Positions 33,839 through 51,708 of a DNA stretch of 60,626 nt are shown here, piece after piece. The stretch comes from Pseudomonas virus PBPA162. Location of the stretch: the sequence record NC_070971.1, one strand, 5' to 3'. The stretch's first letter is position 1, and each line of letters starts with the position of its first letter. Both the position numbers and the translations under genes were made by a program. Below the pieces are notes generated by a model. It saw nothing but the letters and a program-made list of their open reading frames with translations. It did not search any database and was not told the DNA's origin.

Positions 33839-33878
33839 TGAGGTACTCCCGGCGCATGCCGCTTAGTAAAGCCCAGGA

Positions 33879-35381: not shown

Positions 35382-36985
35382 TAAGTTCCCCTTGTCTTGC
35401 CAGTCCTAGCCCCGGTATTGGTGCTGAGGATTTTGTATCGCACTTCATCCCCCAGGTGGTCTTCGGACTCGGTGTCAACGTCGTCCGGATCAACCTCGTC
35501 CCTTGGCAGGCACGGGAACAGTTCGAGGAAGTCTGTGCAGGTGTTGAATACATACATGCCAGGCCTGGTACGGGGAACGCGACGATCGGTGAGCTGCCCA
35601 TCGTCATCCCTGGCGTACTGTACCTTAGCATTCTCCAGGTATGAACGGACCCGTTCCCAGCCACTCTTACGGCTACCGGGCGATTTGTCCGAACGCCGCC
35701 ACCATACACCACTGTATACCTTGCCGTCAATAACAACTTCTTTCTGCATATCTGCGGCAATGCTGTTGCCGTTCATAAGATCGAAGATGCTATTGTCCGC
35801 TGGGCCTGGTTGGGCTCGGCCATGGATACCCATGCGCATTTCGCGCACAACAATACCGCGTGTGATTTCGCTGGCAAGCATACGCAGGCCTTCGTTAGCT
35901 TTGCCTGTGCTACCGTACCACTCACCAATACGGAACAAGTCACCCTTAACCGTGGACATCCAAGTACCGTCAGGCAGTTGTACGTCGCTGCCATCACTTT
36001 CAGCCCACCAGCCAACCGAGAACGGACGGCTTGAACCGTAGTCGAAGGAACGGTCAATCTTCCAATGATGTGGGATAGTGAACGGAGCGATAAAGTGCTG
36101 TTCCTGATCCCAAACATCGTCGAACATACCACCAGCAACGACGTCCCAACTACCGCCAAGCCATGCCTTGCGCTTATTGGGGTCTTTGATCTTTTCTAGC
36201 TCTGCCACGTACTCAGGATCAAGATACTTGTTCTCTTTGTACGTGCCAAAGATGTGTGTCTGCACCTTCTCGATCACTTGCCGCTTTTGCGTGCGAGGGT
36301 TGAACACGTCAGTAGCCACACGGTGGAAGCGGCCAGGCGGTGCCACGTCGATGAAGCGCTTCTTCACCCAGTTGTGACCGGCACCGAACGGGTTGCATGT
36401 TGCAAACACTTCCAACGGGATTGGCGGAATCAGGTAGCTTCGCGCATGCCGGTGCCACTCGTCGCACAGCACCATGCGCCCCGTCTTGTCATAAATCGAG
36501 CCATCATAGTACAGCGGATGGTCTTCTGGGCGGAACGAGCTACGGTTACACGACATCAACGCTTCAAACAGCGTGTCCGTCGGGTACTTGGTAAGTTCGT
36601 TCCAACCAATGAAGGGAAACTCCTGACCGTGGTAATCCCAGTAGTCCTCATCGCGGCTTGCTGTGCGGAAAAGAAGCTCTTCCCCACTAGGCCATACCCA
36701 ACGAAAGTCTGACTTGGAACTGAGGAAGCGAGCACCGTCCTTGAACTCCGGGAACCAGCGTTGGGACTTGGACACCAAGTCATCCAAGTTCTTGTAACGA
36801 CGGTCAAAGATCACCCCTCTCCAGTGCCGGCCATACCCCTGGCCAACCCTGCGCCGAAATCGCATCAACTGTGCGTCGGTCTTACCAGGGCCACGGGAGC
36901 CGTGGTATAGCATGATGTGTGCAGGGCACGACATCGCAAGCGTTTGCGACCCAGGCAGAGGAGTCCATACAACTTTCTTATTCAT
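35381..36985 (-). CDS. terL: Terminase large subunit
   Basis: Walker A GSRGPGKTD near the N-terminus. ATGA coupling with the upstream small-subunit gene. Confidence 0.85.
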   Translation of the reverse strand: MNKKVVWTPLPGSQTLAMSCPAHIMLYHGSRGPGKTDAQLMRFRRRVGQGYGRHWRGVIFDRRYKNLDDLVSKSQRWFPEFKDGARFLSSKSDFRWVWPSGEELLFRTASRDEDYWDYHGQEFPFIGWNELTKYPTDTLFEALMSCNRSSFRPEDHPLYYDGSIYDKTGRMVLCDEWHRHARSYLIPPIPLEVFATCNPFGAGHNWVKKRFIDVAPPGRFHRVATDVFNPRTQKRQVIEKVQTHIFGTYKENKYLDPEYVAELEKIKDPNKRKAWLGGSWDVVAGGMFDDVWDQEQHFIAPFTIPHHWKIDRSFDYGSSRPFSVGWWAESDGSDVQLPDGTWMSTVKGDLFRIGEWYGSTGKANEGLRMLASEITRGIVVREMRMGIHGRAQPGPADNSIFDLMNGNSIAADMQKEVVIDGKVYSGVWWRRSDKSPGSRKSGWERVRSYLENAKVQYARDDDGQLTDRRVPRTRPGMYVFNTCTDFLELFPCLPRDEVDPDDVDTESEDHLGDEVRYKILSTNTGARTGKTRGT

Positions 36986-37506
36986 TCCAAGGCGCTCTTC
37001 TGGAGTTGTTTCTGGTAGTCGCCGGCACCCTCTTCCCACTTGGTTACGTCAGCAATTTCAGGAACCATAATGACACCGCCACGGTTAGCCAGGTCCGCTT
37101 GGTCGCGGCTGTTGGCGTCCATACCGTACATGGCACCCAGCTTAGTCAGCGCGTTTACACGGGCCGACTGGCTGCTGCCAGGGCCACGGTAGTGCGCTTC
37201 GCGCAGCAAGCCAGCACGGATCATACGCTTGGTCTGCTCTTCCTCGGTATCTGCGTTTTCCGGGTCCGAGATTTCAAGCTTCTTGATGCGTTGCTGAACG
37301 TAGGGCTCTTGAATGAACTTGTCCGCATATGCCGTTGCGAAGCTTGGACCATAGCCACACCGAAGGGCGGCGGCTACCTTGTCGTAGTCCAGCATGTATT
37401 GCTCAACGAAGCGATCACGCGCAAGCCGTTCGGCCGCGCTCAGTTCGCGAGCCATGGCTTCTTCGGACCAGAACGACACGTCGTGTTCTTCTTCGTTGTC
37501 AAACAT
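36982..37506 (-). CDS. Putative terminase small subunit
   Basis: Immediately upstream of terL and translationally coupled to it. RBS GGAGA before the second ATG (37506). Confidence 0.45.
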   Translation of the reverse strand: MFDNEEEHDVSFWSEEAMARELSAAERLARDRFVEQYMLDYDKVAAALRCGYGPSFATAYADKFIQEPYVQQRIKKLEISDPENADTEEEQTKRMIRAGLLREAHYRGPGSSQSARVNALTKLGAMYGMDANSRDQADLANRGGVIMVPEIADVTKWEEGAGDYQKQLQKSALE

Positions 37507-37530
37507 CTTGTTTCTCCGCTCCATAAAACA

Positions 37531-37562
37531 ACGCCCCGACTATAAACTAGAACGGGGCGCCG
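37531..37562 (-). terminator. Hairpin plus U-tract upstream of terS (minus strand)
   Basis: CGCCCCG-N14-CGGGGCG, followed on the minus strand by TTGTTTT. Confidence 0.4.
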
Positions 37563-37571
37563 TTGCAAGCA

Positions 37572-37853
37572 TCATTGAGTTAGGTTCTGTGCCGACTCAA
37601 TAGCTTTGATTAGTTGTGTGTACCTTAATAGGCATCCTTCATATGCAACTTTGTACGCCAGGTAGTTGATAGTGAGGCTTTCACCGTCCACTAACTCAAC
37701 GGTCAATGGGGGCCGGCACGGCGCCATCAATGCCGGGCTTGGGGCCACTGCCACCAACTTCTGAACCACCATCGGTTCCGCACTGCGTTGGCTCGAGCAC
37801 GCAGATAAGAGCGCGATCAATACGAATGCGGTACAACTCTTGAACTTTTTCAT
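37572..37853 (-). CDS. o-spanin (outer-membrane lipoprotein, Rz1-like)
   Basis: Signal peptide plus lipobox LLSAC. Pro-rich. Overlaps the i-spanin gene in another frame. Confidence 0.6.
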   Translation of the reverse strand: MKKFKSCTAFVLIALLSACSSQRSAEPMVVQKLVAVAPSPALMAPCRPPLTVELVDGESLTINYLAYKVAYEGCLLRYTQLIKAIESAQNLTQ

Positions 37854-38199
37854 TGGTCACCTTCAAACTTGAAAGCTGCTGGCGGATGTTGTGGCTACGC
37901 GTATCCAGGGCATTAACTTTGTCCTGTAGATACAAAACGTGTTTGGCATCATCTTTGCGCAGCATGGTAAGAGTTTCAAGTGACTTCTGTGTCATCTCAT
38001 ACGCGGCTTCCGTCAAGGTTAGCCGCTTGGACAACTGTTCCGCGTAGTCCTGGCTGTTGCGAAGCTCCGTTCGCAACTCAGCCCTAGACACGAAAAAAGA
38101 CAGCGCAAGCCCTCCAACTGCGAGAACCAATCCGAGCAAGACATAATTCGCGATTAGACTCTGTTTGTTCCGCAAGAATTGAAAAGCCGCGCTGAACAT
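37696..38199 (-). CDS. i-spanin (Rz-like)
   Basis: N-terminal TM helix followed by a coiled-coil periplasmic domain. The o-spanin gene is partly embedded in it. Confidence 0.55.
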   Translation of the reverse strand: MFSAAFQFLRNKQSLIANYVLLGLVLAVGGLALSFFVSRAELRTELRNSQDYAEQLSKRLTLTEAAYEMTQKSLETLTMLRKDDAKHVLYLQDKVNALDTRSHNIRQQLSSLKVTNEKVQELYRIRIDRALICVLEPTQCGTDGGSEVGGSGPKPGIDGAVPAPIDR

Positions 38200-38203
38200 T
38201 CTG

Positions 38204-38551
38204 TCATTCCTCAGGTTTGGGTTCTTTGCGGATGATCCCTAAGCGTTTGTAGACAACTTTCTCTACAACCACCATGGAGGCTCTTGCACCCAGCCATCCA
38301 AGGACACCCACCACCGCGCCAGTCCATTGGTCACTTAGCCCCATAGCCTGGCAAAGCAACACTACCACAATACCGGTAAAGCCTGCTCCCATTCCTTGCA
38401 CCACAGAACGGGACCATTGAATGCGCCCCTGATCCATGGTACGAAGCAGCTCACCTAGGAAGCCACCGGCGGCTGAAAAGGCTGCGTATCCGGTCAGCTT
38501 CAACCACCACCACCAACCCGGATCGTTAAGCAGCTCAATCATGTTCCGCAT
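38204..38551 (-). CDS. Holin
   Basis: Small protein with 2-3 TM segments and a charged C-terminus, located between the endolysin and spanins. Confidence 0.55.
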   Translation of the reverse strand: MRNMIELLNDPGWWWWLKLTGYAAFSAAGGFLGELLRTMDQGRIQWSRSVVQGMGAGFTGIVVVLLCQAMGLSDQWTGAVVGVLGWLGARASMVVVEKVVYKRLGIIRKEPKPEE

Positions 38552-38642
38552 CCTTCCCCTAGTAGGTACGCCGTCATACTAAACAAAAAGGGGCCTGATG
38601 GCAAGCACTTCGCCAGCAGACCCCTTAACTTTCGACAAACGG

Positions 38643-38984
38643 TTATTTGAAACCGTTGTGCTCCAGGCTGTAATGGTTGCCGTCGTTGAAGCGGCCACCC
38701 CAGGTACCACCCAGGCTTTCCCAGTATTCGCCAAGCGGCTTGTGGTCTTCGCTGCTGGTCAGGAACTTGCCGTCCTTGAACAGGTTGAAGTCCACCGCCA
38801 GCCGGCTCTTGTGGGTACTGGACGCGTGACCGTAGCCTTTCTTAACCCCAACCTCGCCGTGCAAGCGAGGGTCGCGGAAGGCGTCGCCAAAGGTCAGCTC
38901 ATACCCGTTGGTGTACGCGTATTCGATCAGCAAACCGATCATGCGGGTGAAACGACGTTGCTTTTGACCCAGTGTCTCGCTCAT
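38643..38984 (-). CDS. Endolysin, peptidase M15 (L-Ala-D-Glu / VanY-like)
   Basis: RBS AAGGAG. Zn-ligand motifs HGE, SxHxxRLAVD and DGNHY. Confidence 0.7.
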   Translation of the reverse strand: MSETLGQKQRRFTRMIGLLIEYAYTNGYELTFGDAFRDPRLHGEVGVKKGYGHASSTHKSRLAVDFNLFKDGKFLTSSEDHKPLGEYWESLGGTWGGRFNDGNHYSLEHNGFK

Positions 38985-38994
38985 TTCAAGCTCC

Positions 38995-39483
38995 TTAGTT
39001 GGTGGGCTGGAAAGTATGCGGCTCCCAGTTGCCAGAGTCAAGGTAGAGTTCGACGCGGTAGCGGAACCACTTCTTGAAATCGTCGTAGCTGAGGGTAGCC
39101 CGAACACTGACAGTTCCCCGGCTGGGAATCTTGCCGATGTTGCAGATGAGCAGTTGGGTGTTCATAACCACAAGCCAGGGCTTGCGGCTCTGCCGGTAGA
39201 TGACGATCGGTTCGCCGCCGAACTCTTTGGCCGCAACCTGGCATTGGTTCCACCAAGTGTTGACTGCCAAGTTCTCCTGACGTTTGATTTCCAATGCCAG
39301 GTCAAAGGGGTTGCTCAGGTCGGACCCACCGACCGCGCTCTGGTTCTGGTTGCGCTGAATGACCGGCTTATAGACCATCCCCAAGCCACGTTCTTTCAGA
39401 ACCAAAGAAATGATCGCGTTCAAATCGTCCGCAATCTCCCGTTCCCCATTCGCACCCTTCTTCCTGATGTTGATCGACGTCAT
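38995..39483 (-). CDS. Holliday junction resolvase (Hjc/RecU-like PD-(D/E)xK)
   Basis: The N-terminal KKGANGEREIADDL resembles the Hjc KGxxxEREL motif. DL...ALEIKRQE provides the D..ExK catalytic triad. Confidence 0.55.
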   Translation of the reverse strand: MTSINIRKKGANGEREIADDLNAIISLVLKERGLGMVYKPVIQRNQNQSAVGGSDLSNPFDLALEIKRQENLAVNTWWNQCQVAAKEFGGEPIVIYRQSRKPWLVVMNTQLLICNIGKIPSRGTVSVRATLSYDDFKKWFRYRVELYLDSGNWEPHTFQPTN

Positions 39484-39730
39484 TCCGTATCTCCGAATTG
39501 TCACAGGCCGCCATGATTTGGCTACGCTTTGATGCGTCGTTGCCCGGCCCGTAGATAGTTGCTGTAGTAGAGTAGAGCCAAAAGCCCGCAGCCTTGTCCT
39601 TGACGGCCAGGGCAGCGGCCTTTACCTGGGCTTCGCTGACCCCGGAGTCGCGGGCGGCCAACACCTTGTCAATCTGCGCGTCGCCAACCGAACAAATGGC
39701 AGTAGCCAGTACAACCCCGAAAGTAAACAT
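39368..39730 (-). CDS. Possible small secreted protein (overlaps the resolvase by ~116 nt)
   Basis: Signal-peptide-like N-terminus. No clear RBS, and the long same-strand overlap lowers confidence. Confidence 0.25.
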   Translation of the reverse strand: MFTFGVVLATAICSVGDAQIDKVLAARDSGVSEAQVKAAALAVKDKAAGFWLYSTTATIYGPGNDASKRSQIMAACDNSEIRNDVDQHQEEGCEWGTGDCGRFERDHFFGSERTWLGDGL

Positions 39731-39769
39731 GCTGTGCGCCCCGTGTAGCCCTGCTACTGCGTTAAAAAG

Positions 39770-39815
39770 CCCTGGCCTACCCGTAGGTACTGCCAGGGCG
39801 CTTGCACCGCGTGGC
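39770..39815 (-). terminator. Rho-independent terminator (minus strand)
   Basis: GCCCTGGC-N16-GCCAGGGC, followed on the minus strand by TTTTT. Confidence 0.5.
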
Positions 39816-39861
39816 AGCCCAGTATGGGCCGTTTGGCGGCTTGCTGCAATTATAACACTGG

Positions 39862-40551
39862 TTAGTTGAGCGTTACAACCGGTTTCTTGAACATAGCCTG
39901 GAGCTCAGCCGCCAGGTTTTCAGCCCTGCGACCCCTGGTAGCCCAGGAACACGGGCGGCTGAGGGATGTAAGCCAGGCGCAAACCTCGCTCAGGTTGGTC
40001 CAACGAAGCTTTTCGTGGAAAGACCCGCCATCACTGTACAGCACGTTCCAACGGTGATCCGGATGGACCGGGTCTGCGTACGCCACCACAAGAATCATCT
40101 TCTTCTGAGCGTGGAGTTCCACGTAGAAGTCAACCACCACCTTGGTAGCGGCGCACAGCTTGACGTTTTCGATGAAGCGCTCGGGGATTTCGCACGCCTT
40201 GGTGATGCGCCGCATGAACTCCCCTTCGGGACGTGGGGGTTGGTGTGGCGCTACCGGCAACGGCATACCGTCGCGCACCTCGCCTTCCTGGGCTGGCACC
40301 GGCTCTTCGGCCGTAGTCATTTCATCCTTGTGTATGTTGATCCAGCGGCTCAGCGCATCCCGGGCCTCGGTAATGTCCTTGAGCTTGCTCTTGCCGCCAG
40401 TGCGCTCGCCGCAAAGCAGAATTTTCTTGGAAGCATGGTGCAGAGCCCCGGACGGGTCTTGCAGATTGAACATTTTGTGCACCATGTACACATCAATCTC
40501 GCTCACCCCTTCCGGGACGGGTTTGAAGTACTTGCGGTAAGGCTTGTTCAT
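39862..40551 (-). CDS. DUF3310-domain protein
   Basis: The N-terminal KYF...SEIDVYMV...ALHHASKKILLCGERTGGKSKLKDITEARDAL matches the DUF3310 pattern. Confidence 0.5.
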   Translation of the reverse strand: MNKPYRKYFKPVPEGVSEIDVYMVHKMFNLQDPSGALHHASKKILLCGERTGGKSKLKDITEARDALSRWINIHKDEMTTAEEPVPAQEGEVRDGMPLPVAPHQPPRPEGEFMRRITKACEIPERFIENVKLCAATKVVVDFYVELHAQKKMILVVAYADPVHPDHRWNVLYSDGGSFHEKLRWTNLSEVCAWLTSLSRPCSWATRGRRAENLAAELQAMFKKPVVTLN

Positions 40552-40799
40552 TTTGCCTCCTCGGCGGATTGGACGCGTTTTTTCAGCAGGGCTAGAACTT
40601 CCTCGTACTCCGGCCAGTCACTTTCGATGACAATAGCCTTGAAGTCGGGGTTGGCGCCGCGTTGCGCACGACACATTCCCTGGATTTGGGCCAGTTTGTC
40701 AAGGGAACGCACCAGACTTTCCGCAACTTCCGGCGAAGTTTCGCGCAAACGGTCCAATTCAGCGAGTTTGAAGAGAAAATAGCGGTTTTCCAGGCTCAT
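40548..40799 (-). CDS. Hypothetical protein
   Basis: RBS GGAGA before the ATG at 40799. Confidence 0.4.
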   Translation of the reverse strand: MSLENRYFLFKLAELDRLRETSPEVAESLVRSLDKLAQIQGMCRAQRGANPDFKAIVIESDWPEYEEVLALLKKRVQSAEEAK

Positions 40800-40800
40800 A

Positions 40801-41136
40801 TCATTCTCCGTAAGGGGTTGACACCATGGGAATGGCATCTTCCATGGGGTTTTTGGGCTCGAGCACTTCATACCAGCCACCAACAGCCGTACCGCCGAGG
40901 ATTGCACTCATGAGGTACTTGTAGTTGTCGCCCAGGGTGCTGCCCGGAACCACAATGGCCAGCTTACGGATGCCGACGCGCGTCTCGTTTGCCGCATACT
41001 CGCCAAAAATGCGCAAACGCGCTTCGTCATCCACGATCAGATCCGCGATGCGGAAGCCAACTGGCAGCCGCACAGCAAAGGTCTGGCCCAGTTCAAGATA
41101 GCTTATGTCTACGTTAAATATCTGGAACTTGTTCAT
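40801..41136 (-). CDS. Hypothetical protein
   Basis: RBS AAGGAG before the ATG at 41136. Confidence 0.4.
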   Translation of the reverse strand: MNKFQIFNVDISYLELGQTFAVRLPVGFRIADLIVDDEARLRIFGEYAANETRVGIRKLAIVVPGSTLGDNYKYLMSAILGGTAVGGWYEVLEPKNPMEDAIPMVSTPYGE

Positions 41137-41140
41137 GTGG

Positions 41141-42013
41141 TTACTCCTTACCCTGCTGGGCGTTGTACTCTTCGATGGCTTCTGCGTACGGAACCAGATT
41201 AAGCTCCAGGTATACGAACGGACGCATATCTTCCTTGCCCATCCACATACGCCCGCCAACCGCCCGCACAGCCTTGCCGCTAACGGGGTTTTCGCCAACC
41301 TCGAACAGGTTGCGCGGAGTCTGTTCCTCCAGGCAAAAGCCCTGGTAAACCTTGCCAGGCTCCAGTTCGTCAAATTGCAGGTAAGTGCGCTTTTTGGTCT
41401 GGTCAACCTTGGCCGCTGTAACGGTAGCCTTGTTGAAGTGGTTACGCACTACCTGCAAAGCTTCCATCGCGCACGAAGCCTGGACACGGTAGTAGCCCAG
41501 GCCTTCCTGCCTTGTGTGGAGACCGTTACCAAGGAACGCATATTCGGTCAGCCAGGCGTAATCCCCGCCATCAGGTTTGACGTAGTACACCTCATTGCCC
41601 TGGCCAGGCGTACATTGGGGGTTGGCGATCTCAGGATTGCGCTCCGATTTTGCAACCGGTTGATGGCTGAGGTGCATGAGCGGCCTTTCCTGCCCACACA
41701 TAACCACAAGGGCGGCTGGCTGGGTTGCCGACGGACGCTCTTGGGTGAATCCAACGGTCTGTACCCACTCGGCACGAATGCATACGTCACGATCGGACGA
41801 CACCCGCACCAATTCCCTGTGCACAGGTGCAGGCGTACCGTCGTCGTGGTAGGTGATGCTCAGATCATAGCGAAGGCCTGGTTCCATGGTACGTCGCTCG
41901 GCATACACAGCAGCGATGTTTCCGGGGATGTGGTTCAAGTTGACAGGAGCGGTGAGATCCGCAACCTGATGATAAACACCAATGACGCAAGACGGACGTT
42001 CAGATTGACTCAT
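41141..42013 (-). CDS. Hypothetical protein
   Basis: RBS AAGGA. 290 aa. Confidence 0.5.
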   Translation of the reverse strand: MSQSERPSCVIGVYHQVADLTAPVNLNHIPGNIAAVYAERRTMEPGLRYDLSITYHDDGTPAPVHRELVRVSSDRDVCIRAEWVQTVGFTQERPSATQPAALVVMCGQERPLMHLSHQPVAKSERNPEIANPQCTPGQGNEVYYVKPDGGDYAWLTEYAFLGNGLHTRQEGLGYYRVQASCAMEALQVVRNHFNKATVTAAKVDQTKKRTYLQFDELEPGKVYQGFCLEEQTPRNLFEVGENPVSGKAVRAVGGRMWMGKEDMRPFVYLELNLVPYAEAIEEYNAQQGKE

Positions 42014-42166
42014 GGTTAGTTCCTTACAGGTGTGAGATGAATGAAAATTACCCGGCGACTATATTTTGAGGGTGGCCGCACCGGTACGCCCTTCTTTTAG
42101 GGGTACCCCAGGGGGTGGCTGACCTTTAGCCCCCAGGTGGGGGCCTGGCCTCGGCCCGCTAGTGCA

Positions 42167-42283
42167 TCATTCTTTGCGTTTTGTTCCGCAATGACCGCAC
42201 CACTTGGACCCCTGGTGTACGAACCAGCGGTGCTTGCTGGTGCCGCCGTTGATGGCTCCGCACTTGTGGCATACCTGCTTCAT
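42167..42283 (-). CDS. Small zinc-ribbon protein (38 aa, CxxC...CxxC)
   Basis: RBS AAGGGGA before the ATG at 42283. Translates to MKQVCHKCGAINGGTSKHRWFVHQGSKWCGHCGTKRKE. Confidence 0.35.
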   Translation of the reverse strand: MKQVCHKCGAINGGTSKHRWFVHQGSKWCGHCGTKRKE

Positions 42284-42296
42284 GATGCTGCTCCCC

Positions 42297-42395
42297 TTAG
42301 ACCAGGGCCGGCACGATGGCCGCCATTGCTACCACAGCGCCTGCTGCCAGGGCCACCATTGCTACCGCGTACTCTACTGCCGCTTGGTTCCACAT
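42297..42395 (-). CDS. Small hydrophobic peptide (32 aa)
   Basis: RBS GGAG 9 nt before the ATG at 42395. Translates to MWNQAAVEYAVAMVALAAGAVVAMAAIVPALV. Confidence 0.3.
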   Translation of the reverse strand: MWNQAAVEYAVAMVALAAGAVVAMAAIVPALV

Positions 42396-42429
42396 GATGT
42401 TTACTCCGTTGTTGGTTGGTATGGGAGCC

Positions 42430-42459
42430 ATTGTACAGGCGTTAGCTACACCCGTGCAA
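42430..42459 (-). promoter_or_regulatory. Leftward sigma70-like promoter TTGCAC-N18-TACAAT, preceded by AAAAAAGGGGG
   Basis: On the minus strand, the -35 hexamer is at 42459-42454 and the -10 at 42435-42430. It drives the small genes and the late block. Confidence 0.45.
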
Positions 42460-42483
42460 CCCCCTTTTTTGAAATACTTCACG

Positions 42484-42699
42484 TCACCAGGGACGTGCCG
42501 GTGCCTGGCACAGCGGCTCCCACAAATGCGGAGCGACGGCGCTGATGTAGTTGTACAGCATGTGGGCCAGCAGCAGACCAGCCTGACCCTGGGCAATACG
42601 TGCCAAAAGCGCTGTCTGCCGCTCGCACGCCTGCCCTTGCACCATGGCGCTAACCGCCAGGCTGAACTCCATCATGGTTACGGCTTTTATGTCTTGCAT
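42484..42699 (-). CDS. Possible small protein (71 aa)
   Basis: RBS GAGGGG 8 nt before the ATG at 42699. Alternative + strand ORFs look like Ala-rich shadows. Confidence 0.3.
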   Translation of the reverse strand: MQDIKAVTMMEFSLAVSAMVQGQACERQTALLARIAQGQAGLLLAHMLYNYISAVAPHLWEPLCQAPARPW

Positions 42700-42879
42700 G
42701 GGTGGTACCCCTCTGTTGTGTAGGCCTGCATTGTACCCATCCGCTCCAGCCAAAAACAAGGCCTTTTTACCCTGGCCGGTGCCCTTCCCTGGTAACCACG
42801 TCCAACCCTCCGCCAAGGCGTCCAAAACAGGCCTAAAACAGCCCAAAAACAGCGTTTGGATGCACCATCTAACACTCTG

Positions 42880-43560
42880 CTGCAAATACCCTAAAAATAG
42901 CCAAAAACTTTTTATTATTTTCCGTTTTATATCCAAAAAGGGGTTTAGCACTTTTTATTATTTTGCAAAATTGGGGTGTTTTTTCTAACGGGCGTTATTT
43001 ACCAATCCTTACTATGAGGGGGCGTTAAAAAGAACGGGCGTTATTTACTAGATTGGTAAGAAAATGGTAAACGGCAAAATTGGCAGCAAGCCCTAGTAAC
43101 CATAGTGTTTACAGTAAAATAAAATTAAGTACCGTAAGGGAGCTAGGGTAGGGTGGTAAAAGGGGTTTAGCAGTTTTTTTAAAAAAGTGAAAAACCCGTT
43201 TTTACCCCCCCCCTTTTACTACCTTACCATTTACTACCCCCCCCCTATTTGGGGTTTTGCATTAAATATTATTTTATTGCTTAGACTTACCAAAATAATA
43301 TTATTCTCTGCCTTACTTTGCCCTGGTATTTGCGCCTGGTTTGCCTGGGTTGTGTGGACGTACGTGTTGGGTGTTTGTGGGTGTTATGTGCTGGTATGTG
43401 CCTGGTTTTGCTCTTCCCAGGGAAACATGCCTTAAAACGGCCTGGCGTGGCCCTGGTGCGTTGGCACGGCCAACCCGGTACCTAGGCATACCCTTTGGCC
43501 TAAACGTTGCGCTACGGCGCTATTTGGTGCCTTGCTGGCGTGCTATGCCTGGTGCCTACC
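42880..43560. repeat. Non-coding iteron region: AT-rich direct repeats, C9/C10 tracts and a GCCTGG iteron block
   Basis: AAAAGGGGTTTAGCA twice, AACGGGCGTTATTTAC twice, TTTTTATTATTTT twice, poly-C runs at ~43204 and ~43236, and at least 7 copies of (T)GCCTGG(T) between 43320 and 43560. Confidence 0.55.
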
Positions 43561-43619
43561 TGTGGTTATGTTGTCCTATGGGCTTTGCGGGGCGCGGGCG
43601 TATAAAGGCGGTTAGGGTG

Positions 43620-43648
43620 TTGACGGGCATCCAAGGCCTGGGTACTAT
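43620..43648 (+). promoter_or_regulatory. First rightward early promoter TTGACG-N17-TACTAT
   Basis: Hexamers at 43620-43625 and 43643-43648. The gene with RBS GAGGTG starts at 43700. Confidence 0.45.
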
Positions 43649-43699
43649 GGCTGCCACTGGGTTGCACGGTGCGGCCTGGGTTAACCACAGAGGTGAACT

Positions 43700-44050
43700 A
43701 TGCAACATACTGAACGTGAAAGCCTGCGGGCTGTGGCGGCCATGGTGGACCAGGCTATCGAGAAGTGCATCGCGGACATGCGTCCTTTCAGCCTGCTGCC
43801 GGTAAGCAAGCTCGACGCTGTGACCTACATGTTTGACGCGCCTGGTGCTGCCTGGCGCACTGTGGTTACCAGGGAGCAGCGCGTAGCGGCCAGGGGCGTT
43901 ACCAGGGAGCTGGCAACCAAGCGCCTGATGGTCGGCCTGGTGGGTGCTGCGGCCCAGGCTGTGCTCATCAGTAACGCCTACACGCCACGCCAGGCGCAGT
44001 ACGCGGCCAGCCAGGCGGCTTGGGCGCGGCGCTGGTTGGTTACGCTCTAG
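43700..44050 (+). CDS. Early hypothetical protein
   Basis: RBS GAGGTG. Confidence 0.5.
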   Translation: MQHTERESLRAVAAMVDQAIEKCIADMRPFSLLPVSKLDAVTYMFDAPGAAWRTVVTREQRVAARGVTRELATKRLMVGLVGAAAQAVLISNAYTPRQAQYAASQAAWARRWLVTL

Positions 44051-44086
44051 TGGAATAGAAAGGGCGCTGCTAGTTCCAAACATGTA

Positions 44087-44115
44087 TTGGATGCAATCGG
44101 CGGCACCCGTATAAT
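44087..44115 (+). promoter_or_regulatory. Promoter TTGGAT-N17-TATAAT
   Basis: Consensus -10. A conserved ATAATGG.CCAC.TCA motif downstream is shared with the promoter at 45440. Confidence 0.5.
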
Positions 44116-44153
44116 GGGCCACATCAACCACACAAACACAGCAGGTACATCAA

Positions 44154-44738
44154 ATGGCTAACATCACCCACACCAACCACACCAACATCGCTACCCAGTT
44201 CTGGACCCTGTACGCTGCGGACATCATGGTACGCGTCGAGGCCCAGCGGGCCGAGGAAGAGCGCGCCCTGCGTGCCAACCTCAGCAATGTCGACCACTAC
44301 ACCATCGAGGACTTGCAGGGCGTCATCGCCTTCCACGAGCAGAATGGCCGCACCCGCCGCGCCAACATCGCCCGCGTCATGCTGGCCCAGCGCCTTGCCC
44401 AGGTGGACGACACCATGCACAAGCTGGTCGACCTGTATACCACCTGGGCCACCGGCGATGACCAGGAACTGGTTGACCTGGCCCTGCAAAACATCACCAA
44501 GTACACTGCCGTCCTGCTGGCCGACAAGGAGAAGGCCTCCAAAGCAGAAGCCATCGACGGGCTCAACCTGGCCGCCAGCTACCTGGCACGCCACGGCTAC
44601 GAAGCCAAGGTTCAGGTTGAGGCAATGCGGGTAATTGTCAAGGACCCGGTGCGGTCCAACGGCCAGGTGGTTTCGCATAACCACGTAAGCATGCGTGCCC
44701 TGCACCAGGCAATCCGCTTTGTCCAGGAGCGCTCGTAA
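44154..44738 (+). CDS. Early hypothetical protein
   Basis: 194-aa ORF after the promoter. Confidence 0.5.
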   Translation: MANITHTNHTNIATQFWTLYAADIMVRVEAQRAEEERALRANLSNVDHYTIEDLQGVIAFHEQNGRTRRANIARVMLAQRLAQVDDTMHKLVDLYTTWATGDDQELVDLALQNITKYTAVLLADKEKASKAEAIDGLNLAASYLARHGYEAKVQVEAMRVIVKDPVRSNGQVVSHNHVSMRALHQAIRFVQERS

Positions 44739-44772
44739 GAGCGCTTCACACCTGTTACCCGGGAGCCCAGCC

Positions 44773-45135
44773 ATGAACCAACTTGCAGAAACCATCAAAC
44801 TTGGCATGTTGCGTGCATTGCAGACGGAGCAACTGCGTCACATGTGCGTTCACGTAATGGCCGTAGCCGACCACCGCGGAATCAGCTACACCAACGCGTT
44901 CAACTTCATGTACTGGGTTGAACGCACCATCGGCCCCTACAAGGATGCTATGCAGTATCTGTGCCAACATCACCCGGACTTGGAGATGGAGCGTCGCAAG
45001 CTGTTCGGTACAGACGAGGAGCGCCGGCGACCCATCTTCTACACCCCCTGGCGCATGACCTTGCACAAAAAGCTGGCCCTGTACTGGTGCAACCTGTACG
45101 TCTGGGCTTATTACGATTTGGTCAAAAGGGTTTAG
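44773..45135 (+). CDS. Early protein, paralog A of a tandem pair
   Basis: RBS GGGAG. It shares its N-terminus and the C-terminal WCNLYVWAYYDLVK motif with the next gene. Confidence 0.5.
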   Translation: MNQLAETIKLGMLRALQTEQLRHMCVHVMAVADHRGISYTNAFNFMYWVERTIGPYKDAMQYLCQHHPDLEMERRKLFGTDEERRRPIFYTPWRMTLHKKLALYWCNLYVWAYYDLVKRV

Positions 45136-45137
45136 TT

Positions 45138-45443
45138 ATGGGAACTGTCGCTCAGTTGATTAAAATCGGAATGGAGCGCGCCATACTGTGCGGCGAACTC
45201 AACCACATGTGCTTCCGCCTGGCGGAGGTCAAAGACTTTGACGAAATCACCCAAAAGGAGTTGACACTATTCAATAGCTGGATACGCACGGTGCTAGAGC
45301 GCCAGCCGTGGTTCGGAGTTAGGGGCTTCCTCAACCGTAGGAACCCAGCGGTGTTCGAGGAAGAACCCCATTGCATGGTCGAGGAGTCCAACTGGTGTAA
45401 TTTCTACGTGTGGACCTACTATGATTTGATCAAAAAGGGTTGA
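45138..45443 (+). CDS. Early protein, paralog B of a tandem pair
   Basis: Starts 2 nt after paralog A. The C-terminal WCNFYVWTYYDLIK matches. Confidence 0.5.
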   Translation: MGTVAQLIKIGMERAILCGELNHMCFRLAEVKDFDEITQKELTLFNSWIRTVLERQPWFGVRGFLNRRNPAVFEEEPHCMVEESNWCNFYVWTYYDLIKKG

Positions 45444-45468
45444 CGCAGGGTGGCCATGGACGCATAAT
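45440..45468 (+). promoter_or_regulatory. Promoter TTGACG-N17-CATAAT, preceded by AAAAGGG
   Basis: Hexamers at 45440-45445 and 45463-45468. Confidence 0.5.
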
Positions 45469-45504
45469 GGCCACGTCACAAAGCAACAGCCCTGGAGGGC
45501 CGCC

Positions 45505-45705
45505 ATGAGCCAGATCGTAGATGTCAAGCAAATTGCAATCAACCCCGAGCGTCGCCCGGCCTACAACGCGGTCATGGTGCGCTGGCTGATGCAAGAAGCT
45601 GAACTCCACCGTAGCTGCGGGCGCACCGCTACCCTGTTCTGCATTGTGCGCAACCGCCCGGACGGCACCTGGCGCCAGATTGTGCAGCTTGTGGCTAGCG
45701 AGTAA
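45505..45705 (+). CDS. Small hypothetical protein
   Basis: RBS GGAGGG. Confidence 0.45.
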   Translation: MSQIVDVKQIAINPERRPAYNAVMVRWLMQEAELHRSCGRTATLFCIVRNRPDGTWRQIVQLVASE

Positions 45706-45738
45706 CTTCTAAAACCATAAGCCCAGGAGGGTAAGACC

Positions 45739-45903
45739 ATGAACGCAGCACTGGCAAGGCTTCAGAACAAGCGCGCTTGGCTGCTCCGCGATATGCTTTC
45801 GAGCAGATGGCACGGCTTCAGCTTTGCCGGCCACCCGTGGGCCAAGCAAGTTCGAGCACTGCATGACGAAGCCAAGTGTATCCGCGAACACCACAACCGC
45901 TAA
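45739..45903 (+). CDS. Small hypothetical protein (54 aa, below the ORF-track cutoff)
   Basis: Strong RBS CAGGAGGG 7 nt upstream. Translates to MNAALARLQNKRAWLLRDMLSSRWHGFSFAGHPWAKQVRALHDEAKCIREHHNR. Confidence 0.4.
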   Translation: MNAALARLQNKRAWLLRDMLSSRWHGFSFAGHPWAKQVRALHDEAKCIREHHNR

Positions 45904-45944
45904 CAACCCAGCCCGGTGCGCCAGGGCTTCACCGAGGGTAAAAC

Positions 45945-46361
45945 ATGAACGCTGATGAACTGTTCCGTGCATGCATTGGCCATGCCATAGCCAACGTTGA
46001 GTACAGGAATTATTGCCTGTACTTCCAAATGTCCAATGGTACTCATTTCCAGTTGCAAGCTGATGAGGGTGAGTATGATTACTATAGCTGCCAGTACCTG
46101 GAGGTAAAGCAGCCTGTCCACGCATTTGTAGGCGACACACTTACCGGCCTGGAGTTGCTACAAGGCCCGGAAACCCACACGCCCCAGGACTACCATTGTG
46201 TTACCTACGTCCGCATTGCCACTAGCGGCGGGGTTATCCAATGTGAGTTGCATACAATGCACAATGGGTATGGTTCGCCTGCTTGTCTTGAGGTATGTGT
46301 CAGCCAGGTACAAGGGAGACCCTGCGCCACCAATGCCTGCCTGGACCACAAATACCCGTAA
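45945..46361 (+). CDS. Cys-rich hypothetical protein
   Basis: RBS GAGGGT. 138 aa with multiple Cys/His. Confidence 0.5.
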   Translation: MNADELFRACIGHAIANVEYRNYCLYFQMSNGTHFQLQADEGEYDYYSCQYLEVKQPVHAFVGDTLTGLELLQGPETHTPQDYHCVTYVRIATSGGVIQCELHTMHNGYGSPACLEVCVSQVQGRPCATNACLDHKYP

Positions 46362-46406
46362 CTATCCGGCCCTGGTACGCCAGGGCTGTTCCCTGGGAAG
46401 CGAAAA

Positions 46407-46607
46407 ATGGAAGCATACGAACTATTCGCCTTCGATACAAAAGAACCTGGCTCGGCTGTGCTGGAACTTGGACCCAACTGGTTTGCCGGGTTCAGCTTTA
46501 GCAAGGACGGCCTGTATCACCTGGCCTACGTCGATGGGGACTGGGTAACCGAGCGCACGCCCTGGTTGCCAACACCAGCAACGGAGGGTTCACGTAATGC
46601 GGGCTGA
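46407..46607 (+). CDS. Small hypothetical protein
   Basis: 66-aa ORF in the early operon. Confidence 0.4.
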   Translation: MEAYELFAFDTKEPGSAVLELGPNWFAGFSFSKDGLYHLAYVDGDWVTERTPWLPTPATEGSRNAG

Positions 46608-46770
46608 AGCAATGGTTGTAGTAGCAATCTGCCTCATGCTTGCGGGCGCCGTCCTGTCCAGCATAGGTGCCAGCCAACGGCCAGCCCTGGCCGGCTTTGT
46701 TAGCCTGGTGTTGGGTGTTCTGCTGAGCATTGCTGCAAGCCAGCTTGTGGTTATTGCAATGCTGGGATAG
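46597..46770 (+). CDS. Small membrane protein (57 aa, 2 TM)
   Basis: RBS GGAGGG before the ATG at 46597. Hydrophobic. Confidence 0.4.
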   Translation: MRAEAMVVVAICLMLAGAVLSSIGASQRPALAGFVSLVLGVLLSIAASQLVVIAMLG

Positions 46771-46855
46771 TACTGACCATGGTTGGTATGGCGCTGTTTG
46801 CGATAGCGTGCCTGGTGTTGTGCCTGGCAATGTGGGACGACTTGAACCCTTAACC

Positions 46856-46882
46856 AAGCCCGCCAACGTGCGGGCTTTTTAG
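46856..46882 (+). terminator. Rho-independent terminator
   Basis: AAGCCCGC-caacg-TGCGGGCTT followed by TTTTAG. Confidence 0.7.
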
Positions 46883-46917
46883 TTCTAGTTGCAAAGCTAC
46901 TTATGCGAAAATGGATG

Positions 46918-46946
46918 TTGCGCCACATCGCTAACCTCCGTAATAT
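46918..46946 (+). promoter_or_regulatory. Promoter TTGCGC-N17-TAATAT
   Basis: Follows the terminator and precedes the gene with RBS GAGGT at 47001. Confidence 0.45.
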
Positions 46947-47000
46947 GCTTACCAACAGGGCAGCAAAGCCCAACCAACCAAACCAACCGAGGTAACTAAA

Positions 47001-47675
47001 ATGGCTAACGTAAAATTCTACTCCAGCAAGTCCAACGCTAAGCGCGCTGCAACCCAAGCTGGCATCAACGTTGAAACCGCAACCCTGCTGGAGCAAGATG
47101 GCAAGTTCGCTTATGTTGCTGCTGACCACACCGAAGCCACCAACAACATGCTTCGCGCCATCGCCGCTATCGCCGAGTACCACTGCGTACCGGAACTGGA
47201 CCTGGAAACCCTGGACCGTAACGGCCTCAACGGTGTGTGCCCGCACTGCGGCATCGACCACCTGGACAACGGCTGGACCGACTTCGAGTCCACCGTAGAC
47301 GCACAGGGCTCCGTACAGGCCGCCCGCAAGGTGCAGAGCCATGAGTACGCCTGCCTGGGCTGCGGTGGCGAGTGGGGTCCGCTGGTAGGTTCCAGCAAGC
47401 CGCGTGCCAAGTCCACCAAAGCCGGCAGCGGCATCAAGATCGAAAAGAACCGCCCGGAGCGCAACGGCGTTACCCGTCCCAGCGCCGGAGGTCAGTGCGA
47501 CAAGGTATGGACCAAGCTGGACGAGATGGCCGCAGGTGGCAAGGTGCCCGCCATCAAAGACGTAAAAGAGTGGGCCAAGGAAGTTGGCATGGCGGATGCA
47601 ACTGCCAGCACTCAGTACGCCCGGTGGCGCAAGTACATGGGCATCGTTGGTCGCCAAACAGAGATGCCGGTCTAA
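47001..47675 (+). CDS. Zn-ribbon protein with C-terminal TQYARWRK domain shared with the 3775 protein
   Basis: CPHCG...CLGCGG zinc ribbon. The C-terminal RNGVTRP...ATASTQYARWRKYMGI is homologous to the 3775..4353 protein. Confidence 0.55.
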   Translation: MANVKFYSSKSNAKRAATQAGINVETATLLEQDGKFAYVAADHTEATNNMLRAIAAIAEYHCVPELDLETLDRNGLNGVCPHCGIDHLDNGWTDFESTVDAQGSVQAARKVQSHEYACLGCGGEWGPLVGSSKPRAKSTKAGSGIKIEKNRPERNGVTRPSAGGQCDKVWTKLDEMAAGGKVPAIKDVKEWAKEVGMADATASTQYARWRKYMGIVGRQTEMPV

Positions 47676-48388
47676 TGGGTAAGGCGATCGAAAAGGCTTC
47701 GGTGATGTACGCCGAAGCCTGTCACCAAGCGCGGGCAAACCCAGGTTTGCAAGTGCGCCTGGAGCCACATCCGGAAGCTGTTTTGCTTGTGCGCTACAAC
47801 CCGGACACCAACCGTATTACCCAGGTGATTCGCCGTAACAGCACTGTACGCAAGGTGACCCGGCAAGTTGCCATCCAAACTCTGGAGTCCTATTACATGC
47901 TTTACAACGATATTGACGCACTCATCCATAATCTTGTAGTTGAGCACAAAGAACTCAACCGCAGTCAGGTGAGCCTGTTTGAAGGCTTGTGGAACTTTGG
48001 CCAGTACATGGGGGTCAACCAGCGCGGGGTGATGGGTCTGTTGCAAGATATGGACAGAGCGCAAGTTGCGTGCGAGTTGGCCAGTGTTATTAAGAAGTGC
48101 GTCAACCAAGCTATTAGCGGGGTTGCCCTTAGCGATGTGTACCAATGGGCCCAGCACTATGGGTACCAAGTATTCCTGAAGAGCCGCCAGCCATATGCGG
48201 ACTCCCAGACGGGATACAAGGGCAAGGGCGGGCGCCGCTATAACCTGGGAGCCGAAGGGGCTATGTGGTGGGTAGGCGCTTCAGGTCAGTGGCAGTACAA
48301 ACCATGTGGTTACCTTCACCCTGGGCGTCGGGCGGACGGCAAGCGTTGGACCATGCATGCAACTTTCGAGGGTGTTACAAGTGCCTAA
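47675..48388 (+). CDS. Hypothetical protein
   Basis: TAATG coupling. 237 aa. Confidence 0.5.
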   Translation: MGKAIEKASVMYAEACHQARANPGLQVRLEPHPEAVLLVRYNPDTNRITQVIRRNSTVRKVTRQVAIQTLESYYMLYNDIDALIHNLVVEHKELNRSQVSLFEGLWNFGQYMGVNQRGVMGLLQDMDRAQVACELASVIKKCVNQAISGVALSDVYQWAQHYGYQVFLKSRQPYADSQTGYKGKGGRRYNLGAEGAMWWVGASGQWQYKPCGYLHPGRRADGKRWTMHATFEGVTSA

Positions 48389-48605
48389 GTTCCTGAAGTT
48401 AGTTGTGTATTATATGACTTTTCAAGTCTTGGTATTGTCTGCATTTATTGGAGGTGTATATTTTCTTGCATATTTTATTCACAGCAACCCGGAATTAGCC
48501 ATATATGCCGTGTTAGTGGTATTTGTAGTTCTTCCGATAGTTGGTGTATCTGTTTTTAAGGCAAAGCAAAAACTGCGTCAGGAGAAGTACAATGTCAGGA
48601 AGTAA
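48381..48605 (+). CDS. AT-rich small membrane protein (2 TM)
   Basis: RBS GAGGG before a GTG start. Strongly AT-skewed codon usage compared with neighbouring genes. Confidence 0.4.
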   Translation: MPKFLKLVVYYMTFQVLVLSAFIGGVYFLAYFIHSNPELAIYAVLVVFVVLPIVGVSVFKAKQKLRQEKYNVRK

Positions 48606-48846
48606 CCCCAAACCGTTCAAACACACCGCCAAGCGTAACGACCGTCCGGGTATATGTTTGCGCTGTGGGCAGGACGTTGCCAGGGGTAATGGGGTGTACA
48701 GCAAAAAGCGGGGAGGGCTCATGCACGTCCTCTGCTCTGTTGGTAGTAACCCAATCGCCCGACCAAAGCCCAAGCGTAAGAGCCTTAGCGGGCTGGGGAA
48801 AGCTGCACTTGCAATGGCCCCGGAGGACTGGTATGAAATCGACTAG
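48592..48846 (+). CDS. Small basic Zn-ribbon protein
   Basis: RBS AGGAG. CLRCG...HVLC. Confidence 0.45.
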   Translation: MSGSNPKPFKHTAKRNDRPGICLRCGQDVARGNGVYSKKRGGLMHVLCSVGSNPIARPKPKRKSLSGLGKAALAMAPEDWYEID

Positions 48847-49231
48847 CGGCGTTGACCCTCGACTTCTGATGGATTACAGGGTTAAGGCTGTGCAGAACCT
48901 GTCAGCAATGATCGATGCTTTGGGCTATGCGCCAAGTGCATGTGTTGCCAGCGTTATCGGGCTACCGTCAAACGTCCCGACTTCGGTGCTCAACAACACA
49001 CCCAAAGGTGGAACTACGGTGGTATGGGTGCTTTACAAACAGACCAACCATTCTAAGCCCGTTGGCTATGTAGCCATGCACTTTGGACAAAGCTTGATCA
49101 TTGATAGCAACATGCCTGAATTGCACGCCTGTGAGCCAGAGCTCCATCTCAAGTGGGTTACCCAACTGGACGCAGAAAGCGTCGGCAAATACCGCAACTG
49201 GAGCGACTTCGTTACTTTCCGGGCTTCGTAG
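48833..49231 (+). CDS. Hypothetical protein
   Basis: RBS GGAGG before the ATG at 48833. Confidence 0.45.
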   Translation: MKSTSGVDPRLLMDYRVKAVQNLSAMIDALGYAPSACVASVIGLPSNVPTSVLNNTPKGGTTVVWVLYKQTNHSKPVGYVAMHFGQSLIIDSNMPELHACEPELHLKWVTQLDAESVGKYRNWSDFVTFRAS

Positions 49232-49297
49232 ATAAAGCTTGCCTACAGGCCTTAACGACCGTACCATAGCCACACATTCACCAAGAGGACTTTAGGA

Positions 49298-50030: not shown

Positions 50031-50038
50031 GTAAAAAG

Positions 50039-50574: not shown

Positions 50575-50585
50575 GGGGAATAGCA

Positions 50586-51229: not shown

Positions 51230-51235
51230 CAGGTG

Positions 51236-51265: not shown

Positions 51266-51295
51266 GGCCCCGTTCACACATTTGGAGGGGTAAAA

Positions 51296-51706: not shown

Positions 51707-51708
51707 CA

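Follow-up and report, generated by a model that had tools for sequence, protein, structure and literature searches.

The ends of the packaged genome have been located, in several phages, inside a divergent intergenic region, and we examine here the corresponding region of Pseudomonas virus PBPA162 (positions 42,014 to 44,050 of NC_070971.1; the window, i.e., the whole stretch of DNA analyzed, comprises 60,626 nucleotides, and all positions refer to it). In Iggy, the termini were mapped by Nanopore reads and a direct terminal repeat (DTR) of 1091 bp was reported with no coordinates given (Olsen et al. 2023, PMC10484667). In the Nonagvirus 9g, a read-start hotspot was found at position 28243, in a divergent intergenic region of 605 bp and 473 nt before the first early gene (Kulikov et al. 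2014, PMC4276943). The record of HdSG1 (MK373795) has an exact terminal duplication of 3363 bp whose outer boundary is the 9g hotspot base (...ATCTAA|GAGCCGCCCCGCGGCGTTACTATAACG), and the record of Salva (Beaumontvirinae, MW393850), for which PhageTerm predicts a 3973-bp repeat, was opened inside a divergent intergenic region of 1.2 kb. The element in PBPA162 is of this known kind, the terminal and divergent-promoter region of Queuovirinae, here in a further member.

Our blastn search with the divergent region matched solely Iggyviruses, a group of siphophages of Pseudomonas aeruginosa within the subfamily Queuovirinae, and PBPA162 is itself an Iggyvirus. The identity of the protein encoded at 43700-44050 to that of PBPA162, together with an open reading frame (ORF) that crosses the window boundary, shows that the window is a complete, circularly permuted genome with an arbitrary opening point; as the initial annotation had stated, the boundary splits a DUF669 gene, and the ORF 59967..249 with its DUF669 domain spans 60626/1. 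By the layout of the Iggy annotation, the minus-strand arm runs from 42702 through small genes, RusA, lysis, terminase, and structural genes, and the plus-strand arm runs from 43700 through early genes, replication genes, and a preQ0/DpdA cluster. The divergent control region that the initial annotation placed between these opposed arms is flanked on both sides by outward consensus sigma-70-type promoters. Its proposed length of 1.7 kb has to be reduced, as the gene-free part comprises only 42703-43699, whereas the remaining ~0.7 kb (42014-42702) is coding, with three small leftward ORFs on the minus strand that are annotated in relatives and one sigma-70-type promoter (Table 1).

We consider it reasonably probable that this region combines one physical end of the packaged DNA, in the form of a DTR, with the outward-directed first promoters of both arms and with protein-binding repeats that are kept free of the dinucleotide GA.

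Probable Position and Type of the Genome Ends

The physical end very probably lies in the AT-rich core of the divergent region, most likely at 43018|43019, because Iggy, 9g, HdSG1, and Salva each have one boundary in the equivalent divergent intergenic region. The opening point of the Iggy record corresponds to 43018|43019 of the window, that of HTN2 to 43050|43051, and that of Knedl to 42868|42869; the Pa-V and Pa-oumiga records open at a pair of poly-C tracts, with a 46-bp overlap, and Pa-X is without 42115-42464. Altogether, four assemblies besides Iggy break between 42114 and 43244. The exact cut position is thus borrowed from Iggy. Among the direct repeats noted in the initial annotation, AACGGGCGTTATTTAC indeed occurs twice exactly (42987-43002 and 43033-43048, 46 bp apart), one copy on either side of the putative cut. 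The words AATCCTT upstream and GGCGTTA downstream are common to the Iggy opening point and the 9g/HdSG1 terminus, and the sharing of a 7-mer with the 9g context on both sides is found at 0.5% of the junctions in the PBPA162 genome, in a test that was devised post hoc. Positions 43013-43022 form the single variable spot of the core, a 10-bp patch exactly at the putative terminus with two alleles: PBPA162, Iggy, HTN2, and PaP002 have TATGAGGGGG, and Knedl, Pa-oumiga, and Pa-X have GTTACTCGGC. The large terminase likewise connects PBPA162 to phages with DTRs, with 61.7% identity in tblastn to JenK1, which belongs to Nonagvirus as do 9g and HdSG1, and 64.1% to Salva, and its Pfam matches are Terminase_6N and Terminase_3 only. 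Short contigs from Logan were tried as markers of the terminus and rejected, as they stop at strain-variable sites and not at the putative terminus.

The initial annotation had proposed the region as the site of the genome ends, possibly of the cos type. The position of an end is upheld by homology to Iggy, 9g, HdSG1, and Salva; the cos proposal is not, and judging from the relatives the ends of PBPA162 would be DTRs. Repeated short words that bracket a cleavage point are a feature of terminase recognition sites such as the R-sites of lambda cosB and pacL/pacR of SPP1. PBPA162 has two exact 16-mers and a half-site within 62 bp, and this repeat set flanks the putative cleavage point in a manner loosely reminiscent of the cosB R-sites beside cosN, which would suit a cos site of lambda- or HK97-like packaging, as would the Iggy and HTN2 records, which have no terminal overlap. 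We nevertheless regard a cos site as highly improbable given the 1091-bp DTR reported for Iggy, the exact terminal duplication of HdSG1, the repeat predicted by PhageTerm for Salva, a large terminase of the Terminase_6N and not the GpA type, and the absence of an IHF site from the core. Unlike the lambda and SPP1 sites, moreover, the PBPA162 locus is expected to be without cohesive ends, and binding by the small terminase is putative.

When 1091 bp, the length of the Iggy repeat, are mapped from the opening point, two extents are candidates for the DTR, 43019 to ~44110 on the side of the early arm and 41915-43018 on the other. Sequence alone gave no placement of the repeat, as conservation drops at both candidate inner boundaries. 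We have a modest preference for the first, because the order of elements in 9g and HdSG1 is identical (in 9g: terminus, AT-rich stretch, one-stranded CCTGGT array, promoter with a TACTAT -10 hexamer, early genes) and runs into the early arm, and because the inner boundary would then lie in intergenic DNA that is conserved; that of the alternative extent falls within a gene of high variability.

Several observations weigh against our overall reading of the region. The direction of the repeat varies among relatives, running into the replication arm in 9g and HdSG1 and into the lysis/terminase arm in Salva. The Iggy paper gives no location for the DTR, and the Iggy record differs from the version described there (60628 bp and 90 coding sequences in the record, 60626 bp and 85 coding sequences in the paper), so the record was possibly opened elsewhere than at the mapped end. 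The HTN2 opening point is displaced by 32 bp, the poly-C tracts are where Pa-V and Pa-oumiga break, and for Pa-X the breaks are at other homopolymers; some of the breaks are thus effects of assembly or were copied from the start of an earlier record. The ends of PBPA162 are placed from its relatives and not from PBPA162 virion reads. Alignments of the whole region to the 9g and CAjan intergenic regions were no better than shuffles (Smith-Waterman z of ~0 for 9g), and the likeness to 9g consists of short motifs, including the 7-mers of the post hoc test. CCTGGT arrays, which are described below, are absent from NP1 and from the segments of Salva and 20Sep420 examined. With respect to the GA depletion, also described below, windows near positions 26 and 15201 are about as GA-poor at a scale of 250 nt, and a sequence made of few repeated words can skew dinucleotide counts.

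Within the Queuovirinae, 9g and HdSG1 resemble PBPA162 in subfamily, in the bidirectional genome plan, in the end inside the divergent intergenic region with its AATCCTT/GGCGTTA flanks, and in a large terminase that is 62% identical. They differ in that there is no alignable similarity past the short motifs, the intergenic region is 605 bp in 9g versus 997 bp in PBPA162, and the DTR is 3363 bp in HdSG1 versus 1091 bp in Iggy; 9g also has no poly-C pair, no GA depletion (0.80, observed/expected), and three regular array copies where PBPA162 has seven to nine irregular ones. Iggy is far closer: it belongs to the same genus, its divergent region is ~91-95% identical, its DpdA and gp04-like proteins are identical, and it has the same poly-C tracts, repeats, and GA depletion. 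It differs by one fewer 11-nt unit at 42824-42853 and by carrying a different allele of a stretch at 43350-43400. Outside these groups, the left end and concatemer junction of coliphage T7 offers an analogy in layout. There, a DTR flanked by short repeat arrays is followed by the strong host-polymerase promoters A1-A3 and the first early genes, and a hairpin intermediate has been proposed for duplication of the terminal repeat. A fixed terminus, a short DTR, nearby direct-repeat arrays, host-type early promoters, and an imperfect palindrome near the end would be common to both; we claim no membership, as sequences and phage group are unrelated, PBPA162 is a siphovirus without a phage RNA polymerase, and its palindrome is not conserved in relatives. 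Ends of the DTR type in this region, as opposed to cos ends, matter for correct genome records, for the rebooting and engineering of Iggy-like phages that are candidates for therapy, and for packaging-competent constructs.

Composition and Conservation of the Core

The initial annotation had singled out 42880..43320 as AT-rich, and its GC content of 35.4%, against 56.4% genome-wide, is the lowest 300-nt GC in the window. The homopolymers described there as C9/C10 are real as two poly-C tracts, and both are C9 in PBPA162: the whole 60.6 kb contains just two homopolymers of at least 8 bases, at 43205-43213 and 43237-43245, 32 bp apart and separated by TTTTACTACCTTACCATTTACTA. Further repeats are GGGGTTT(A/T)GCA, present three times (42940, 43162, and 43251), and TTTTTATTATTTT, present twice. 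That tracts and repeats are errors of assembly or sequencing can be discounted almost entirely. The assemblies of some relatives break at homopolymers and the length of the second C tract varies by one base between records, as such errors would produce, yet the same tracts and repeats recur in every independent assembly aligned, those of six relatives and one Logan assembly, which come from different platforms and laboratories; we conclude from this recurrence that they are genuine. As a separate observation, the divergent region of NP1 (Nipunavirus, KX129925, 48747-49145) contains TAAGGGAG followed by a G8 run beside an AT-rich stretch, echoing GTAAGGGAG and the G-runs of the Iggyviruses.

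Identity to the window in five relatives is 0.92-0.98 over 42900-43299 and does not drop below 0.90 for most of 42014-44100, whereas it falls to 0.72-0.84 in the neighboring leftward gene and to 0.79-0.89 past 44133, and the adjacent 290-amino-acid protein is 46-68% identical in Knedl, HTN2, and PaP002. Where non-coding DNA exceeds its coding flanks in conservation, dense cis-acting function is indicated. Searches for more distant relatives returned nothing or chance single matches, both in IMG/VR (with the 16-mer repeat and the first early protein), in JGI metagenomes (with two conserved patterns), and in a plasmid collection and an exact-protein look-up; a scan of IMG/VR with the pattern CCTGGTAT...CCTGGTAT was discarded as too unspecific.

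The conserved stretch of ~860 bp between the innermost promoters, PL and PR, most likely acts as DNA, because it has no consistent ORF, no Rfam match, no covariation, and a palindrome that is not maintained. Relatives annotate differing ORFs on differing strands, and 1-nt indels between phages argue against coding in the core. The Rfam scan of 41500-44500 gave only sub-threshold, microRNA-like noise that derives from the palindrome, and RNAalifold on seven sequences of 43300-43699 found no covariation (term -0.13). The palindrome can form a DNA hairpin at 43134-43227 (free energy -26 kcal/mol, z -2.45), which we rejected as a conserved structure, since an AAAA to TTTT change in one arm in HTN2 and PaP002 is uncompensated. 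These data also bear on the idea that the stretch yields a non-coding RNA, or a long structured 5' leader that starts at a weak internal promoter (TTGCTT-16-TATTAT, 43277-43304) and reads through the CCUGG array. Such a promoter match exists, and the G/U-rich sequence folds extensively; we still think an RNA function very unlikely, as there is no Rfam family above noise, compensatory changes affect only 3 of 119 pairs alongside the covariation term of -0.13, the -35 of the internal promoter is weakened in three relatives, and the hairpin is not kept in HTN2 and PaP002.

A One-Stranded CCTGGT Array

Beside the AT-rich core lies a repeat block for which the initial annotation counted at least seven copies of GCCTGG. 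We find 7 in 43320-43700, compared with 0.45 +/- 0.79 per 380 nt genome-wide, which makes it the genome maximum. The array is one-stranded (nine CCTGG versus one CCAGG), its five CCTGGT and four CCTGG(G/C) copies (43322-43675) all reading toward the replication arm, and the last two copies overlap PR (43637) and the leader of the first early gene (43675). In all Iggyviruses, five of the copies are without variation, including where the surroundings have two alleles. Arrays occupy the equivalent place and orientation in two other genera: 9g has three copies, CCTGGTATnTTCGnCA, spaced 26-27 bp, and CAjan (Seuratvirus) has four, with four of the five occurrences on both strands of 13 kb falling within 100 bp at the junction. 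One 9g copy and one CAjan copy have the 19-mer CCTGGTATTTCCGGCACAC in common. We found no mention of the CCTGGT array in our literature search, and it probably serves as a protein-binding array, to judge from its sequence, with the small terminase (36982-37524), a replication initiator, or a regulator as candidate ligands. As a conserved element, it is a concrete candidate for a cis-acting signal across three genera with different hosts.

The array could alternatively consist of iterons for a phage initiator, e.g., the 809-amino-acid PrimPol-helicase (53458-55887, with DUF3987 and NrS-1 polymerase HBD domains), with the 35%-GC stretch unwinding next to it, helped by the flanking transcription. 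Iteron-type origins, such as lambda ori, P4 ori/crr, and those of iteron plasmids, similarly have a direct-repeat array that abuts an AT-rich stretch, and in PBPA162 the lowest GC of the genome directly adjoins the one-stranded array. The extreme conservation without coding or RNA signal would fit an origin, avoidance of GA would suit a site that has to be read whether or not the DNA is modified, a PrimPol-helicase, a polymerase, and a clamp are encoded by the phage itself, and the array is kept in 9g and CAjan, which have homologous primases. However, the copies are irregularly spaced (13, 9, 57, 40, 11, and 96 nt) and share just 5-7 bases, CCTGG(T) and a few flanking bases, and we found no set of three or more near-identical direct repeats of ~17-22 bp in helical phase. 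The core contains no DnaA box with up to one mismatch and no IHF consensus; no initiator gene is adjacent, as that of the PrimPol-helicase lies 10 kb away; a search of a plasmid collection showed no similarity to any plasmid origin; GC skew is uninformative, since it tracks the direction of transcription; and CAjan has a separate, more origin-like AT-rich repeat region in its replication arm. An origin, which would be compatible with a terminal function, is therefore a possibility that we hold to be doubtful.

Two stretches in other phages are recorded here in their own right. In CAjan (NC_028776), a 630-bp AT-rich non-coding stretch of the replication arm (9963-10593) with many TAGGGTA/TACCCTA repeats in both orientations resembles PBPA162 43136-43250 (GGGAGCTAGGGTAGGG ... 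C9 tracts) and appears a better candidate for an origin than the divergent junction. In Salva (MW393850), a perfect DnaA box, TTATCCACA, and repeated ACGGATAC words occur at ~620-640, in a 934-bp non-coding left end inside the PhageTerm repeat.

A purely transcriptional role, in which CCTGG(T) copies are operators for a regulator of PR/PL, the AT-rich core is a target of the host nucleoid proteins MvaT/MvaU or curved upstream DNA, and the genome ends lie elsewhere, seems to us unlikely. It would be in keeping with the outward promoters on both sides, with the CCTGG copies that overlap the PR spacer and the leader, and with the putative transcription regulators encoded by relatives; the authors of the 9g study proposed regulated divergent promoters and pointed out two putative regulators (PMC4276943). 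It would leave unexplained, however, both the mapped ends of 9g, HdSG1, and Salva in the equivalent region and the breaks of five assemblies here. Most array copies lie 70-300 nt upstream of PR, beyond typical operators, and the 9g promoter has no CCTGG copy.

A GA/TC-Poor Island

At a strict GA motif, the DpdA protein of Iggy introduces dPreQ0, with 97% of the GA sites carrying the modification (PMC10484667). PBPA162 encodes a DpdA (7912-8850) that is 100% identical to that of Iggy, and the target motif is depleted in the divergent region. Positions 43019-43620 contain 13 GA/TC dinucleotides where 73 are expected from base composition, a ~5-fold depletion (observed/expected 0.18) that was reached by none of 5000 shuffles and that is the genome minimum for 600-nt windows, for which the ratio is 0.79 +/- 0.15. 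Other dinucleotide pairs in the island range from 0.70 to 1.58 (AG/CT 0.81), none being similarly depleted. The depletion is present in all seven Iggyviruses (0.16-0.19), whereas the ratios elsewhere are 0.80 in 9g, 0.96 in Salva, 0.69 in NP1, and 0.57-0.59 in non-coding DNA of CAjan, whose enzyme targets GA and GGC.

The most economical reading of this depletion is that the proteins which read the island either do not tolerate 7-deazaguanine or have to act alike on modified and nascent DNA. We put forward only tentatively, as a suggestion that could well prove wrong, that the ~700-bp core is a modification-free island purged of GA/TC for the benefit of the terminase, and possibly of replication or regulatory proteins, and that CCTGGT is a previously undescribed binding array that acts as a packaging or initiation signal in part of the Queuovirinae. 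If true, the island is a natural experiment on how a 7-deazaguanine, placed in the major groove, disturbs sequence-specific proteins; it would mark the sites that the phage cannot afford to modify and make it a testable question which proteins dPreQ0 blocks. The Iggy paper describes neither the GA-poor island nor the non-coding core nor the repeat array (PMC10484667). More generally, the extreme conservation, the poly-C pair, the cross-genus CCTGGT array, and the GA-poor island are not mentioned in the literature that we searched and appear undescribed.

Avoidance of the motif may extend beyond the core, as the phage may avoid its own modification motif generally. Genome-wide, GA/TC is the most under-represented pair in PBPA162 (observed/expected 0.78), compared with ~1.0-1.13 in Salva and NP1, and a second stretch, 15201-15450, is as poor as the core, with 5 GA/TC versus 28 expected.

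A Model for the Divergent Region

Taken together, we posit that the divergent region could work as follows. In concatemers, it would be the junction that is cut by terminase, which would make one of its two fixed cuts at ~43018|43019, between the two exact AACGGGCGTTATTTAC repeats. The virion DNA would then carry ~1.1 kb at both of its ends as DTR, most likely 43019 to ~44110, and would include the AT-rich core with its two C9 tracts, the CCTGGT array, and PR together with the first early gene. Host RNA polymerase would start at the predicted sigma-70-type promoters, leftward from PL and P2 and rightward from PR and PR2, with neither a strong promoter nor a conserved ORF in the ~860 bp between PL and PR. 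The repeats adjacent to the cut and the one-stranded CCTGGT array may be binding sites for phage proteins; we favor the small terminase, with a replication initiator or a regulator of the early genes being possible. Finally, the binding sites would be kept free of GA so that G in them is never replaced by dPreQ0, and proteins would encounter an equal DNA surface on modified and nascent genomes.

Predicted Outward Promoters and Neighboring Genes

A position-weight-matrix scan, which gives consensus matches of the sigma-70 type only, predicts promoters on both strands before the first genes, with -35 and -10 hexamers spaced by 16-18 nt that are kept in relatives. All four point outward, and the stretch between PL and PR has weak promoter matches only. 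The exact 15-mer AAAAGGGGGTTGCAC, which is present twice in the genome (3677 on the plus strand and 42454 on the minus strand), had been taken for an upstream element of phage promoters; it is instead an A-tract/G-run followed by the -35 hexamer TTGCAC of a sigma-70-type promoter, with no separate phage-specific element. The related idea that copies of AAAAGGGGTTTAGCA are promoters fails for want of a usable -10 element, and GGGGTTTAGCA elements were rejected as promoters in the same way, with no usable -10 at 16-18 nt. The leader between PR and the start codon of the first early gene is without sequence variation and hence without a covariation signal either way. Pfam and PHROG searches of the neighboring small proteins found no function; the 38-amino-acid ORF has weak Pfam zinc-ribbon matches that are under the curated cut-off.

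Table 1. Features of the divergent intergenic region of PBPA162 and its borders (window positions; promoters are consensus matches)
Feature	Position	Strand	Remarks
38-amino-acid ORF, CxxC...CxxC zinc-ribbon-like pattern	42167..42283	-	homolog of Iggy gp03; annotated in Iggy and HTN2
32-amino-acid hydrophobic ORF, GGAG ribosome-binding site ahead	42297..42395	-	homolog of Iggy gp02
Predicted promoter P2, TTGCAC-18-TACAAT, AAAAAAGGGGG ahead	42430..42476 (hexamers 42459 to 42430)	-	leftward
72-amino-acid ORF, first of leftward arm, without known family	42484..42702	-	homolog of Iggy gp01
Predicted promoter PL, TTGTTT-18-TACAAT	42730..42759	-	~25 nt upstream of ribosome-binding site of 72-amino-acid ORF
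11-nt tandem repeat AAAACAG(G/C)CC(T/A)	42824..42853	+	copy number varies; one unit fewer in Iggy, HTN2, and PaP002
AT-rich core	42880..43320	.	35% GC, without conserved ORF; 92-98% identity in seven Iggyviruses
GA/TC-poor island	42880..43620	.	target motif of dPreQ0 modification depleted
Terminus-flanking repeat set	42987..43048	+	two AACGGGCGTTATTTAC copies bracket GGGGGCGTTAAAAAG (43018-43032); AATCCTT at 43004-43010
Putative physical end (outer boundary of DTR)	43018..43019	.	opening point of Iggy record
Favored DTR extent, ~1.09 kb, early-arm side	43019..44110	+	alternative 41915-43018
G-run block GGGAGCTAGGGTAGGGTGGTAAAAGGGG	43138..43165	+	G-quadruplex-capable; left arm of imperfect 94-nt palindrome
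Two C9 tracts inside 24-nt direct repeat	43194..43249	+	second tract C9-C10 in relatives
CCTGG(T) array	43322..43553	+	copies at 43322, 43335, 43344, 43401, 43441, 43452, and 43548
Predicted early promoter PR, TTGACG-17-TACTAT	43620..43648	+	52 nt before first early gene; hexamers invariant in relatives
Hairpin-capable leader CTGGGTTGCA CGG TGCGGCCTGGG	43657..43680	+	invariant; between PR and start codon
First early gene, 116 amino acids	43700..44050	+	protein identical to PBPA162 QDB70887; Iggyviruses only
Predicted second rightward promoter PR2, TTGGAT-17-TATAAT	44087..44115	+	conserved block ends ~18 nt downstream

Additional Observations

A promoter similar to P2 is found at 3677-3714 on the plus strand, where AAAAGGGGG is followed by TTGCAC-17-TATAGT in the gap between ORFs that end at 3672 and start at 3775, and it is likely a middle-gene promoter of the rightward arm. 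The sizes given in the Iggy paper are 60626 bp for Iggy and 61286 bp for PBPA162, compared with 60628 bp and 60626 bp, respectively, in the records, and the paper numbers genes with an offset of 3 relative to RefSeq; a mix-up, or the use of unreleased versions, may account for the published sizes. In the DUF669 protein encoded across the window boundary, tandem repeats (TRF) at 72-180 and 60468-60577 specify a long low-complexity tail rich in Q/P/A/V, and this part of the window (60468-60626 and 1-249) is also GA/TC-poor. The last small gene of the rightward arm (15168-15386, plus strand) encodes a basic protein of 72 amino acids and contains four GCCTGG copies; just beyond it, at 15405-15431, where the two arms converge, lies a perfect bidirectional terminator hairpin, AAAAAGCCCGGTCTAGCCGGGCTTTTT.

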